Origin: an uncultured archaeon
GTDB lineage: Archaea; Asgardarchaeota; Lokiarchaeia; Sigyniarchaeales; SOKP01
DNA length: 47,844 nucleotides
Assembly: GCA_964525635.1 (NCBI GenBank)
Contig: CAZGJX010000017.1
Coordinates: 1 to 47,844, forward strand
Direction: 5' to 3'
Shown: positions 41,672 through 47,844 of the stretch, piece after piece
Position numbering within the stretch: position 1 is the stretch's first letter
Layout: the number at the start of each line of letters is the position of its first letter
Program-made: the position numbers and the translations under genes
Notes under the pieces: model-generated
Seen by the model: only the letters and a program-made list of their open reading frames with translations
Databases searched by the model: none
Told to the model about the DNA's origin: nothing

Positions 41672-42997
41672 TTGGATAATAAAATATATTTAATTGATGT
41701 AACAAATAGAGATGGAGTCCAGACTAGTCGATTAGGTCTAGCAAAATTAGAAAAAACAGTATTAAACATCTTACTTAACAAGATGGGTGTTTATCAATCC
41801 GAAATGGGCTTTCCCACAACATTGCATGAAACAAATTATATCAATGCTAATCTTGAACTTGCAGCTATAAAAGTGATCCATCCAATGATTCTTGAAGGTT
41901 GGATTCGAGCTGTTGAAGGAGATGTAAATCAAGCTGTAGTGCTTACAAGGGTTGAACATCTTAACCTATCCATATCAACATCTCAACAAATGATAAATGG
42001 TAAATTCCAAGGAAAATATAATAAAGATGATATTATTAACATGATGGTAGCTGCTGTAAAGAGAGCAAAAGAATTAGGGATTAAGACAATTGGTGTAAAT
42101 GCTGAAGATGCTAGTAGAACAAATATGGACTATTTGATTAAATTTTCTCAAGCAGCTAAAAAGGTGGGAGCTGATAGAATTCGCTATTGTGATACTTTAG
42201 GTTATGAAACACCTTATAGAATTCATATGAGATGCAAAGAATTAGCAAAAGAAGTGGGTATTGACATTGAAATACATTGCCATAATGATTTAGGTATGGC
42301 CGTAGCAAATTCTATTATGGGTGCTAAAGGTGTATTAGAAGAAGGATATGATTCTTATATAAATACAACAGTAAATAGCATGGGAGAGCGAAGTGGTAAT
42401 ACTGATTTAGTCTCTACTGTTCTTGCTTTAAAACATGGTGCTGAATGGGCTGATATAGATATGCTTGATCATAAAGTTAAACTAGATAAAGCTTGGCAAA
42501 TAGCTAAATATGCAGAACATGCTTTTGGAGTCCCAATTCCAGTTAACCAAGTTGGAGTTGGGGATAATGCTTTTGCTCATGAGTCCGGTATACACGCTGA
42601 CGGCGTACTTAAGGACCGGAAATTATACGAACTTTATGATTTCAGGGAATTGGGCAGAGGAGATAAAATATTAATAGAAACTGGGCGCTTAATTACAACG
42701 GGAGAGTATTCTGGGATAAAAGCATTTAAACACGTTTATGAGAATTTTGACTACACTTTCAAAAATGACGAAGAGGCAAGGCAAATCTTAGAATTAGTCC
42801 GGCATGCTAACGTACATAAACAGAAACCACTCGTTAAGGAAGAATTTCTCTTTATCGTAGAGCATCCAAAAATCACCCAGACACTCCTAACGATGCAACC
42901 CCCAAATATAACAATCTTTCGTCCATCTATTGAAAGAAAAATGGAGAGTCAGAAGAAAAAAGAAATAAAAAAAGAAGTAATAGAGAAAACTACTTAA
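41672..42997 (+). CDS. Homocitrate synthase-like enzyme (DRE-TIM family)
   Basis: DVTNRDGVQT, NAEDASR, CDTLG, HCHNDLG, GERSGN and FAHESGIHADG; SD GAGGT. Confidence 0.88.
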   Translation: MDNKIYLIDVTNRDGVQTSRLGLAKLEKTVLNILLNKMGVYQSEMGFPTTLHETNYINANLELAAIKVIHPMILEGWIRAVEGDVNQAVVLTRVEHLNLSISTSQQMINGKFQGKYNKDDIINMMVAAVKRAKELGIKTIGVNAEDASRTNMDYLIKFSQAAKKVGADRIRYCDTLGYETPYRIHMRCKELAKEVGIDIEIHCHNDLGMAVANSIMGAKGVLEEGYDSYINTTVNSMGERSGNTDLVSTVLALKHGAEWADIDMLDHKVKLDKAWQIAKYAEHAFGVPIPVNQVGVGDNAFAHESGIHADGVLKDRKLYELYDFRELGRGDKILIETGRLITTGEYSGIKAFKHVYENFDYTFKNDEEARQILELVRHANVHKQKPLVKEEFLFIVEHPKITQTLLTMQPPNITIFRPSIERKMESQKKKEIKKEVIEKTT

Positions 42998-43078
42998 TTT
43001 TTTTCCTCATTTTATTTTCTGTACTTCCTACTAATATATAATCATAATATTTGAATTTGTTTTTTAATTCTCAAAATT

Positions 43079-43423
43079 ATGTTTAGAAGAAAAACTAAAG
43101 ATATTATTGAAGAGGAAGTAACAAAAGCAGGTTCAACAAAAACAACAATAAGATGGCTAATTACAAAAGAAGATGGTTCTGAAAATTTTACTACAAGAAG
43201 TTTTGAAATAAAATCTGGTGGTGAAGTAGGACTCCATCAACATCCTGAAGAACATCACATATATGTTCTTGAAGGTGACGCCAAATTTATCAATGAAGAT
43301 GGAGAGATTGAATTCATAGCTTCAAAAGATGATGTAATTTACATACCCCCAAATGAATCTCATAGAATTAAAAATGACACAGAAGAAACGTTTAAATTCA
43401 TCTGTATTATTCCATATCTCTAA
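43079..43423 (+). CDS. Cupin domain protein
   Basis: HQHPEEHHIYVLEG and IPPNESH. Confidence 0.9.
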   Translation: MFRRKTKDIIEEEVTKAGSTKTTIRWLITKEDGSENFTTRSFEIKSGGEVGLHQHPEEHHIYVLEGDAKFINEDGEIEFIASKDDVIYIPPNESHRIKNDTEETFKFICIIPYL

Positions 43424-43717
43424 TAAATAATTTCTTTAATTATCATCATATTGAATTTACTATCTTATTTTTAAGATCTTCAATGTTTTACATAATATCT
43501 TTATATAATGTGAGATATATTTTTAGAATAGATAACAATAGAAAAATTAGATTTAATTTTAAAAGAAAATAAGCGTGGAATTAAATATAATAACGTGAAA
43601 AATAGTAGAATTTATGGAAAGATATGAGAATGATTAAAGAATAAGGTTATTAAAAATCACATTTAATTCTTTTGATAAATCTTATTTTATAAATCATATA
43701 AAAAAAGAGGATAAAAA

Positions 43718-44362
43718 ATGAAGACAAGACAAAAAATTATTATAGTTTTTATTGGTTTATTTATAATTCTTTCTGCAATCAGAATTTCCAACGCAGCCAC
43801 AGTTGGAATCTCAGAAGTGGGTGTCTGGGAAGGAGATGAAATTAGATGGTATGGAACCGCTTTAGGTAATACTGGTACGGTGAAGATAGCTATCGATTCT
43901 GTAAATGGAACAGGAAATGATTTAGTTGTTACAGGTGATTTATTAGGTTCTGATGGATCAGCTTTATATAATCAAATATTATTAGAATGGAATGCTGAAA
44001 CTGAAGAATTAAGTTTAGGAATTTTAAATGGGTCAGCTATACTTTTACAAGTTGTATATATCGCTCCAAAACTTAATTTAGATGCTGTGGTTACTTTTCT
44101 AGAAGATTATGGTTCTACTTGTGTTTTAAATGGTCTCGAAATATCTGCGATTAAAGGTGATTCAAATGTGGTCCTTAAATTTGATAATGATGGAATTTTA
44201 ATCTCTGCAAATGGAGATGCGCCTTCATATGGGGGTAAAATATCAATTAAAAGGGTATACGATGATGATGAAATTTCATTAGGATATACACTTTTCTTTG
44301 TAATTCCAGTTGCAATTATTCTAGTAATAATCAGAAAACGAAAAACCGTAAAATTAGCTTAA
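43718..44362 (+). CDS. Secreted surface protein with a C-terminal TM anchor (Loki-CTERM-like)
   Basis: Signal peptide MKTRQKIIIVFIGLFIILSAIRISNA; C-terminus ISLGY, TM helix, then RKRK. Confidence 0.75.
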   Translation: MKTRQKIIIVFIGLFIILSAIRISNAATVGISEVGVWEGDEIRWYGTALGNTGTVKIAIDSVNGTGNDLVVTGDLLGSDGSALYNQILLEWNAETEELSLGILNGSAILLQVVYIAPKLNLDAVVTFLEDYGSTCVLNGLEISAIKGDSNVVLKFDNDGILISANGDAPSYGGKISIKRVYDDDEISLGYTLFFVIPVAIILVIIRKRKTVKLA

Positions 44363-44558: not shown

Positions 44559-46284
44559 ATGACAACTAATACAAAATTAATCTTCGTGACGGGAGGAGTG
44601 ATGAGTGGTATTGGTAAGGGTGTTGTCATAGCTAGCTTAGGAAAAATCCTTCAGTTTCGAGGATTTAAAATCTCTGTAGTTAAGATTGATCCTTACTTAA
44701 ATATTGATCCTGGAACGCTCAATCCAATTGAACATGGTGAATGTTTTATAACAGAAGAAGTATGGGATTTTAAGCCAGTACCCGATTCAGATGAGAGGGT
44801 ATATAAAATAAGTGAAATAGACCAAGATTTCGGTACATTTAATCATACGTATAGTATGATTTAGTAAAAACGAACGATTCTTGGGTATCACTATCCATCC
44901 CTCTAATAATATAACATCTGGACAAATATATTTATCAACGATTTTAAAAGAAAGAAAGGGTAAATTTTTAGGAAGAACCGTTCAGCTTATTCCACATGTT
45001 ACCAATATGATTAAAGAAAGATTATTTGAAATTGCTAAAAAAGAAGAATTAGATGTGCTTTTGGTTGAATGTGGGGGAACTGTGGGTGACTTAGAATCTA
45101 GCATCTTTTTAGAAAGTTTTAGACAATTAAGATTAGAATTACCAAAGAAACATACTGCTTTAGTTCATGTAACATTAATCCCATATTCTAGAGCAGTTGG
45201 TCAACAAAAATCAAAACCAACTCAACATTCTGTTAAAATGCTTCAGAGTGCAGGTTTACAACCAGATATTATAATAGGTAGAAGCGAATTTGTGTTAGAA
45301 GAGGATATTAAAACTAAGATATCCTTATTTTCTAATATTCCTAAAGAAGCCGTTATATCAAATCCAGATACAGAAAATATATATGAATTACCTTTGTTAT
45401 TTGAAGAGCAAAATCTAGGAGATCAATTGTGTGAAATCTTAGATCTAAAAGCTAAATTAGTATCTTTTAACAAAGTAACTAATTTCTCTGAATGGCAAAA
45501 AACAGTTGAATTATTCAAGAATGCTAAAGAATTAGTTAAAATAGCAATGCCAGGTAAATATTTCAATATAACTGATTCATATATTTCAATAAATGATGCT
45601 TTAGAGCATGCTGCGGTTCATCAAGGTTATAAAACAGATCTTAAAATGATTAATATTGATGAAAATCTTAATATTGAGAAAGAATTAAGTGAATGTGATG
45701 GGATTTTATTAACTCCTGGATTTGGAAGAAGAGCAGTAGAAGGAATGATTAAAAGCGCTGAATTTGCGATGGAGAAAAAAATCCCCTTCCTTGGTATATG
45801 TTTTGGAGCACAATTATTTTTTATTGCTTTCTGTAGAAAATATTTAGGATTAAAAGAAGCAAATTCTACTGAAATAAATCCTAATACTCCTTATCCTGTT
45901 GTTAATCTCTTAGAAAGTCAGAAAGAAGTAAAAGAAAAAGGAGGTACGATGAGATTAGGGGGCCTAAAAATTATATTAAATAAAGGAACCAATTTATATG
46001 GAGCCTATAGTAAAAAAGAGATTACTGAGCGTTTTCGACACAGATATCATATCATCTCAGATTATATCACAGAAGATGCTAAAGAAAAAGGATTAATTAT
46101 TTCTAGTACTGATGAGTCTGGAATGATTATTAACAGTATTGAATTAAATCGACCAGAACATTGGATGGTTGGAGTTCAATTTCATCCCGAATTTAAATCT
46201 CGTCCTTTTGCACCCTCAAGAATTTATTCAGAATTTATAAAGGAATGTATAAAGTATAGAAATAAGAGATTAGAATTCAGATAA
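44559..46284 (+). CDS. pyrG: CTP synthase, join(44559..44838,44870..46284), 564 aa after splicing
   Basis: [38 protein letters not shown] and QFHPEF are all intact; the two ORFs join when 31 nt are removed. Confidence 0.93.
44839..44869 (+). other. Putative bulge-helix-bulge (tRNA-type) intron in pyrG mRNA
   Basis: 5' strand TTCG|GTAC|AT^T|TAATCATAC pairs with 3' strand GTATGATTTA|GTAA|AA^A|CGAA; cuts after the second bulge base rebuild TAC (Tyr) in DFGTYERFLG. Confidence 0.85.
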
Positions 46285-47844
46285 TTCTCTAAATTTTAAA
46301 TCTTTTAAAATATTTAATGACTGATTTTCTGATAAAAATTTTTCTAAGTCTTTTTGTGTAATTGGATGAATTTTTGATAATTCTAATAGTTCTAACTCTG
46401 CATTTCTACTTAATAATTCCAATTTCTTAAAAAAATGATCATCATATAAACTTTTAGAGATATATTCTATTACTTCATTATAGAGTTTTAAATGCTTTCC
46501 GCGATATCCAATGTATCTAGCAAATTCTTCTCCATTTACTAATTTTATATTATTATAATGTGGTATTTTTATTCGTTTTGGTATCTTTTTTTTCAGTCGC
46601 TCAGTTAAAAGTACAATTATTAATATTCGATCAATACTTTGATAATTTTTATAAAATTTACTATATATAATTTTGAGATCTTTGGATATTGTATAATCAA
46701 TATTTATCATTTTAATATTATCTTCCAAGTCAATAAATGTATTATCAATTTTCGTGTCTCTATCAAATGTAGGACTTATTTCATAATAACCATTATATCC
46801 TTTTTCTAAACAAAATTTAATAAAAATTAACTCTAATACATTATGAACATATTTACCAATATTATTTGCTCTCTTATTGTTTGGAGAAAAAAAATCAATG
46901 TTCCAATTTTGAAAATTTTCCCCTTCATTTCTAAATTTGTTCTTTAATCTTTGAGATATAGTATTAGGAGAGGGAAAGTTATTTTTAATCATACTCAAGT
47001 ATTTTGATACAGAAGAAAAACTACCAATTTCTTCATATAACTTTTTCCATTCTTCAACATCCTCTTTTGAATATTGCTTTTGAAAATAACTAATTTTATC
47101 AACTTTATATTTTTCAAACCATTCATCATAATTCTTACTTTCTTTTTCAAATTTCTTTTGAATTCGATATTTAATTGCTGCTGGATCTGGACCAATTGCT
47201 TTGTGATTATTTTTTAAATATGAACTAACTCCATTAAAATATCCTATCTCTTCAAATATTATTATCCATTCATTTATTTCTTCATCTCTGTACTTTTGCT
47301 TAAATGTTGTAGGATTATCCGCTCTAAATTTATTTTGCCATTCCTTAAAATTTTTACTTTCTCTTATAAATTTCTTTTTTATACGGTTTTTAATGTTATT
47401 AGATGCAATTGTTAAATTATAGGTTTTTTCTAAATAACTACTTATCCCATGAAAACTACCAATTTCCTCAAATAATCTTATCCAATATTGTATTTCATTT
47501 TCATTGTGTTTTTGGAGTTTGATATTTCTTTTAAATTTCTTTTCCCAATTATTAAAATCTTGATTGTTTTTATTAAAATATTTATAGATTCTATCTTTAA
47601 TTGTTGTATCCGCTGGCCCTTTCCCTTTTGTTTTTTTTATATGATCTTTTACATGATTATAACTTCCCAATTCTTCATATAAACTTATCCATAGTTTTAC
47701 ATCTTCGTCAGAATATTTTTGAATACCATAGATTATTTTAGGTTTCCATTTTTCTATTTTAATACCTGCTACATTATGGAGTAAATTAATATATTTCAGT
47801 ATATAATTTTGTATAGGCGTTTTAGTTAAGCAAATATACTCCAT
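46270..47844 (-). CDS. Protein with four ~70-aa HTH-like repeats and a C-terminal PD-(D/E)xK-like domain (N-terminus may extend beyond the window)
   Basis: Repeat core YSxExxxxWxxLYEEIGSF...IxxRI...F..W occurs four times, followed by IGKYVHNVLE, YEISP, KIDNTF and INIDYT. Confidence 0.7.
   Translation of the reverse strand: MEYICLTKTPIQNYILKYINLLHNVAGIKIEKWKPKIIYGIQKYSDEDVKLWISLYEELGSYNHVKDHIKKTKGKGPADTTIKDRIYKYFNKNNQDFNNWEKKFKRNIKLQKHNENEIQYWIRLFEEIGSFHGISSYLEKTYNLTIASNNIKNRIKKKFIRESKNFKEWQNKFRADNPTTFKQKYRDEEINEWIIIFEEIGYFNGVSSYLKNNHKAIGPDPAAIKYRIQKKFEKESKNYDEWFEKYKVDKISYFQKQYSKEDVEEWKKLYEEIGSFSSVSKYLSMIKNNFPSPNTISQRLKNKFRNEGENFQNWNIDFFSPNNKRANNIGKYVHNVLELIFIKFCLEKGYNGYYEISPTFDRDTKIDNTFIDLEDNIKMINIDYTISKDLKIIYSKFYKNYQSIDRILIIVLLTERLKKKIPKRIKIPHYNNIKLVNGEEFARYIGYRGKHLKLYNEVIEYISKSLYDDHFFKKLELLSRNAELELLELSKIHPITQKDLEKFLSENQSLNILKDLKFRELSEF

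Follow-up and report, generated by a model that had tools for sequence, protein, structure and literature searches.

The closest described system is the bulge-helix-bulge (BHB) intron of the cbf5 pre-mRNA, found in the Desulfurococcales and Sulfolobales (Watanabe 2002; Yoshinari 2006; Yokobori 2009, PMC2738675). Most cbf5 introns are unconventional BHBs that are cut by a hetero-oligomeric EndA (PMC2738675). A BHB intron is also known from the 5′ untranslated region of Haloferax HVO_1309, and its description names cbf5 as the only other mRNA case (PMC7714728). In our own literature search, which covered few subscription papers, cbf5 was the only archaeal gene with an intron in its coding sequence, and predicted ones in other protein genes may be in print. 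Noncanonical introns with BHB boundaries and repeated gains have been described for Asgard tRNAs (PMC11291895; bioRxiv 10.64898/2026.10.13.758758). These papers cover tRNAs only; the preprint (bioRxiv 10.64898/2026.10.13.758758) deals with neither mRNA, pyrG nor cbf5, and did not identify a general path by which the introns arrived. Here we describe a 31-nt insert in the CTP synthase gene, pyrG, of an archaeon from the same lineage group, which is very probably a relaxed BHB intron of the pyrG mRNA that EndA and RtcB would splice.

By every feature that could be tested from sequence, the predicted pyrG intron belongs to the class of relaxed BHB introns. Like the cbf5 intron it is a relaxed BHB (PMC2738675), although in a different gene and a different phylum. 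The inner part of cbf5 introns is highly variable, whereas the length of 31 nt and the hairpin shape of the pyrG intron are nearly fixed, and cbf5 splicing was demonstrated by cDNA, whereas we infer that of pyrG. As in HVO_1309, the pyrG mRNA would be an EndA substrate, but the HVO_1309 intron lies in an untranslated region and leaves no frame to be restored. Compared with the known class, the new features are the host gene, the lineage, the fixed size, the co-occurrence of several other genes with such inserts in the same genome and signs of mobility, including a nuclease gene beside some pyrG loci.

The window analyzed here, a 47,844-nt stretch, is contig C17 of a 100%-complete, 4.45-Mb Promethearchaeia genome with 27% G+C (G000), whose close relatives are Promethearchaeota, in line with the Asgard host proposed in the initial annotation. 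On the plus strand, pyrG shows as two ORFs, 44559-44864 and 44881-46284, that match successive parts of the PyrG profile. The insert at 44839-44869 separates exon 1 (44559-44838; codons 1-93 and the first base of a Tyr codon, profile positions 2-66) from exon 2 (44870-46284; the remaining synthetase domain and the glutaminase domain, PRK05380, E 2e-158). Two tandem in-frame stops (44862-44867; TAG at 44862-44864 and TAA at 44865-44867) lie within it, so that unspliced translation stops after 101 residues.

To define the junctions, we enumerated frame-restoring deletions with starts from 44826 to 44849 and lengths of 25, 28, 31, 34 or 37 nt. Removal of 44839-44869 was the sole tested deletion that restored D-F-G-T-Y-E-R-F; it gave a 564-aa ORF in a single intact frame with all synthetase and glutaminase catalytic motifs present. 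At the junction site, x-Y is found in each of the 51 full-length relatives with a match to the motif. The cuts predicted by the BHB rule, after 44838 and 44869, are the same as the junction that gives this conserved Tyr, hence both routes lead to 44839-44869, as the initial annotation had proposed. Lokiarchaeia PyrG proteins also carry, relative to Thermus PyrG, an insertion of ∼16 residues immediately before the E-x-D-x-D motif (44752-44810 in the window), and they do so with and without the intron.

An assembly artefact, or a decaying copy beside a second intact pyrG, had been named as ways in which the proposal could fail. Contigs from three other samples (runs X3, X4, and X5) spanned the insert without differences, and none of the contigs of these runs held a DNA joint lacking it. 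This implies that the insert is present in the DNA and is not excised from it, which rules out an assembly error. The interrupted gene is the sole pyrG of this complete genome; a second copy was not found. The broken frame itself could still be read as a pseudogene. pyrG is generally regarded as essential; no copy was found in G013 and G022, two 99%-complete genomes of genus g11 in the same family, which suggests that its loss may be tolerated, and three other g11 genomes have an intact gene. However, besides its identity in the other samples, the insert recurs in 18 copies, and within the genus dN/dS is ∼0.06 (0.06-0.07), with dN of 0.07-0.10 at a saturated dS of 1.1-1.6. No second lesion was seen in the near-full-length copies compared, and the intron retains 23 to 26 of its 31 bases within the genus despite dS above 1. 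These values indicate strong purifying selection on the gene over a long period during which it already carried the insert, and we give a pseudogene or an artefact next to no weight. A separate observation concerns the intronless pyrG of genome G007, which contains one in-frame TAG and is otherwise intact.

We then considered the RNA predicted for 44822-44884. Its exons would pair in an outer helix, CCAAGA/TCTTGG (44822-44827 with 44879-44884), and in a helix that closes the BHB, TTCG/CGAA (44829-44832 with 44871-44874). The central helix, GTAC/GTAA (44833-44836 with 44864-44867), opens with a G44833·A44867 mismatch and is flanked by a 5′ bulge, ATT (44837-44839), and a 3′ bulge, AAA (44868-44870), with predicted cuts after the second base of each. 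The intron hairpin (44840-44863) comprises ∼3 bp, a 1-nt bulge, 6 bp, and a 5-nt loop; in the window copy the inner stem has 8 bp (44841-44848 with 44854-44861) around a 5-nt loop. Each of these elements, and the TAG-TAA pair, lay where the initial annotation had placed it. The fold has a z score of −3.3, and none of 200 shuffles was as stable. Pairing probabilities for the outer helices and the inner stem were ∼0.8-1.0 (0.8-1.0 for the outermost helix), apart from one end pair at 0.43, even in a 540-nt context. In contrast, nearest-neighbor energies gave the three central pairs a probability of just 0.02-0.04, and placed the exact BHB 4.8 kcal/mol above the minimum-energy fold; C at position 44867 would make the BHB the best fold.

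The two 3-nt bulges stand on opposite strands, each 3′ of its central-helix strand and between exon and intron helices, as in BHB introns. The central helix departs from the strict canonical 4 bp, since it consists of three pairs plus G·A (15 copies) or G·U (3 copies). Judged by its predicted fold, this is a relaxed BHB, in which the enzyme would have to close the central helix. No Rfam family matched the insert at E values up to 1. A group I or group II self-splicing intron was ruled out by the length of 31 nt, as the ribozyme core takes several hundred bases, and by the absence of an Rfam match.

The pairing could be assessed in an alignment of pyrG across genomes and metagenomes, an approach that the initial annotation had suggested for covariation. 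Metagenome copies were located by sequence pattern and by their truncated 102-aa products. This gave 18 distinct same-site copies, 17 of 31 nt and one of 32 nt; as the copies are related, counts over them are not independent tests. Their inner intron sequences diverge widely with the pairing kept. Compensatory changes were found in 10 of the 17 pairs, and all nine intron pairs had changed on both sides in some copy. The covariation score was 0.386, compared with 0.175 for shuffled alignments (none of 500 reached the observed value) and at most 0.142 for slid registers. The outer exon-exon helix was paired in 85% of cells (9 copies) with no compensatory change, and the exon helix that closes the BHB in 98.5% (17 copies), where changes led to G·U only, bar one cell. 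In the central helix, a U-A pair has become C-G in 2 copies, which couples a synonymous Gly position of the exon to a base of the intron.

Applying the BHB-rule cuts restored the mature sequence in 18 of 18 copies. Among these copies, the 5′ bulge has A or T as its third base and nearly invariant exon bases; in the 3′ bulge all four letters occur at the second base and only A at the third. Thus, variation begins and ends at the predicted cut sites and the bulge bases retained in the exons hardly vary or do not vary at all, which is what the predicted junctions demand. Where pairing calls for a particular letter, synonymous exon positions likewise keep it. For instance, the Tyr codon is TAC in all 18 intron copies, compared with 11 of 29 intronless genes. 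Taken together, the tRNA-intron shape and the compensating changes in relatives indicate that the pyrG mRNA is very probably cut and rejoined.

These data also bear on two ways in which PyrG could be made from unspliced mRNA. In the first, the ribosome would bypass the insert by hopping from one Gly codon to a matched one, in the manner of phage T4 gene 60, or shift by +1 at the stop to give a full-length protein. A stop codon and a hairpin are indeed present, the fixed length of 31 nt could suit a hop, and several copies end the intron in GGT-AAA-T, repeating the upstream GGT, from which G-K-Y-E-R would follow. In this genome and its genus, however, the landing triplet is AGT rather than GGT, and the product would read K-N-E, with the conserved Tyr lost. 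A +1 shift would insert ∼10 residues of freely varying sequence into a motif where intronless relatives lack any insertion. Both versions leave the exon-exon pairing and the exon-intron compensatory change unexplained, and we consider them very unlikely. In the second, a 101-aa N-terminal piece and a 467-aa piece with a TTG start at 44881 would be made separately and then assemble. Gene finders do call both ORFs in many assemblies, but this arrangement would forfeit Y-E-R-F, whose codons all 18 copies conserve, and the short ORF's tail changes freely at the peptide level while its RNA pairing is conserved. We regard such a split protein as, if anything, slightly less probable still than a ribosomal hop or shift.

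The predicted splicing would depend on EndA and RtcB, and the genome encodes two EndA subunits (contigs C18 and C105) and RtcB (contig C119). The C18 protein is an alpha subunit with the Tyr/His/Lys catalytic triad; it aligns best to EndA of Aeropyrum pernix and has a K-P-R loop motif matching K44/R46 of that enzyme. The C105 protein is without the catalytic Tyr and His, as for a structural, beta-like subunit. In crenarchaeal EndA, the ability to cleave relaxed motifs comes from this loop and its Lys44 (PMC3241643). Judging by these residues, the host appears to encode an EndA able to cut relaxed motifs, in addition to RtcB. Many of its tRNA genes carry introns. By ARAGORN, one of its contigs holds 22 mostly intronless tRNA genes in ∼7 kb and another cluster of 6; these clusters resemble a mobile tRNA array and differ from the host tRNA genes, which are scattered and intron-rich.

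For cleavage and ligation we rely on established archaeal splicing chemistry, set beside the sequence, its conservation and the enzymes encoded. The nascent RNA would form the exon helices and the intron hairpin, and a two-subunit (alpha-beta)2 EndA with the relaxed-substrate loop would close the weak central helix and cut after the second base of each bulge, at 44838 and 44869. RtcB would then ligate T to AC, giving the Tyr codon and the 564-aa CTP synthase, and the 31-nt intron would be released, possibly as a circle. Any mRNA left unspliced would terminate at the intron stops and yield a 101-aa fragment. A 63-nt RNA and the two endA genes would permit a direct in vitro test of these steps without culture.

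The initial annotation held that the tRNA machinery splices this mRNA and that the splicing might be regulatory. Its first part is strongly supported, on comparative grounds, by the BHB intron, EndA, and RtcB, with splicing itself predicted; regulation found no support. In the regulatory scheme, which is compatible with splicing, slow processing of a weak BHB or GTP-dependent ligation would tie CTP synthase output to the nucleotide or growth state. Three features would fit it. The first central pair is never Watson-Crick or G-C in the 18 copies (the opposing base is A in 15 and U in 3), even though a C there would turn the BHB into the most stable fold. The intron varies unusually little in length and shape despite saturation at synonymous sites. 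Finally, every one of the 18 introns contains an in-frame stop. Such stops are common by chance in inserts this A+T-rich, however, arising in 67% of shuffles and in a second frame in 15 of 18 copies, and the copies are related. Moreover, G·U replaces the G·A mismatch in three copies, most relatives are intronless (8 of 135 family genomes have the intron), similar inserts occur in unrelated genes, and an effect of GTP on RtcB would hit all introns alike. The role suggested for the imperfect helix and for GTP thus found no support here, and we judge a regulatory switch unlikely. The variant that the G·A mismatch is kept to preserve the TAA stop is weakened in the same way, as the three G·U copies terminate at an earlier stop and chance alone often yields stops. 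Most likely, the pyrG intron is a passenger that the host tolerates at a conserved motif, and one of several ∼30-nt mRNA introns of this genome.

The search for those other introns, likewise suggested in the initial annotation, succeeded in part. A genome-wide, homology-free scan for BHB inserts bridging two coding frames returned 976 candidates compared with 983 mirrored decoys, and in the absence of overall enrichment it does not establish the number of other introns. The pyrG intron ranked 3rd of the 976 and was the best of the 28-33-nt candidates, at −9.3 kcal/mol compared with −6.4 for the best mirrored decoy; the four best candidates of this size outscored every decoy of that size. Intact paralogues confirmed two convincing inserts, 32 nt in a thioredoxin gene (C1:45743-45712, minus strand) and 30 nt in a small GTPase gene (C27:33768-33797, plus strand). 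Five further candidates were recognized by motif only: in the genes for aIF2-gamma (C142:4695-4667, minus strand), with the P-loop rebuilt, for MoxR (C1:63101-63071, minus strand), with Walker A rebuilt, and for a molybdopterin-binding/CinA-like protein (C26:35491-35462, minus strand), in a second small GTPase gene (C62:3369-3399, plus strand), and in a gene without assigned identity (C44:13663-13693, plus strand). These BHB-shaped inserts in other coding genes measure 29-32 nt.

As a tentative generalization, for which we hold the chances to be somewhat short of even, many housekeeping genes of Lokiarchaeia may have conserved motifs interrupted by a class of mobile ∼30-nt mRNA introns that are spliced by the tRNA enzymes and spread by free-standing homing nucleases. 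If so, the closest prokaryotic relatives of eukaryotes would routinely carry out tRNA-type mRNA splicing, and introns would invade protein genes in the archaeal lineage closest to eukaryotes. This would bear on how intron-tolerant gene expression and RtcB-ligated mRNA splicing, which is of the IRE1/XBP1 type, originated. Because intron-split genes are annotated as fragments or hypothetical proteins, metabolic reconstructions are distorted as well.

We next turned to the distribution of the pyrG intron. The 8 family genomes with the same-site insert span four genera. The patterns used, which can miss diverged copies, did not find the intron in 265 other genomes of the phylum; one extra pattern match outside the family, in G191, proved not to be pyrG. 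No same-site intron occurred among genes with a Y-S-R variant of the motif. In a check for spliced transcripts among assembled sequences, no full-length protein in the best 120 matches was identical to an intron-bearing fragment (best 97%); P0016 and P0122, which stem from one sample, differ from each other. The split PyrG fragments P0068 and P0094 group with genus g2, where the same-site intron was not found; a break elsewhere or gene-calling artefacts are possible for these. At the same pyrG site, a longer insert starts in locus L081 (501-587; at least 87 nt, cut by the contig end), for which a long hairpin is possible, and it may be a full-size form of the intron.

On a PyrG tree, which was quick, was built from the C-terminal part only and had eight split database fragments scored as intron-bearing without individual checks, the intron was scattered, with at least 8 changes of state; a single origin without loss was rejected (AU p 1.7e-41). 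Such a patchy tree fits one old gain followed by many losses as well as it fits repeated homing or gain. Among loci with upstream DNA, which were sampled differently for the two states, 4 of ∼11 with the intron had a LAGLIDADG gene directly upstream of pyrG, compared with 0 of 26 without it. These genes are free-standing and of one close subfamily (L071:545-1624, L059, L078:254-601, and L079:158-1066, with L079 and L080 being one locus). In L071, the LAGLIDADG gene sits between pyrG and the gene for enoyl-CoA hydratase, a usual neighbor. Its presence beside pyrG in four intron loci suggests homing. The upstream gene was not found in the genus of the window itself. Of 161 genomes of the class, 33 carry more distant relatives (40-50% identity) at other loci, where no clear link to BHB inserts was seen (1 of 25 loci). 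In phage collaborative homing (PMC10448857), as in the four pyrG loci, a nuclease gene lies beside a conserved gene that an intron splits, and the distribution is patchy. The phage introns, however, are self-splicing group I introns without ORFs, whereas the pyrG intron would be a protein-spliced BHB mini-intron on an archaeal chromosome. We put the spread of the intron between lineages by DNA homing, through a free-standing nuclease next to pyrG, at a little below an even chance relative to inheritance with repeated loss only.

A second nuclease candidate lies in the window itself. The repeat-rich ORF at 46270-47844 on the minus strand, convergent with pyrG and cut by the contig end, encodes a putative free-standing PD-(D/E)XK-fold nuclease. 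The model of its C-terminal domain has a pLDDT of 91.5, and the best structural matches of this domain were mostly restriction-endonuclease-like folds with middling Z scores of 5-7; the ORF matched no Pfam family, and its Atlas leads were all under 0.9. A 607-aa database protein is identical to the product over the domain searched, and the family is patchy and multi-locus, found in 38 of 135 genomes. The same slot beside pyrG holds a gene of this kind in G011, which has the intron, and in G078, which has none. As it flanks pyrG with and without the intron, a link of this downstream nuclease gene to the intron is only putative. On the other side of pyrG, upstream and on the same strand (41672-44362), lie a homocitrate-synthase-like gene, a cupin gene, and a gene whose 214-aa product has hydrophobic ends. 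The cupin gene directly adjoins pyrG in two genomes of the same genus, which suggests that the 214-aa gene may be a later arrival.
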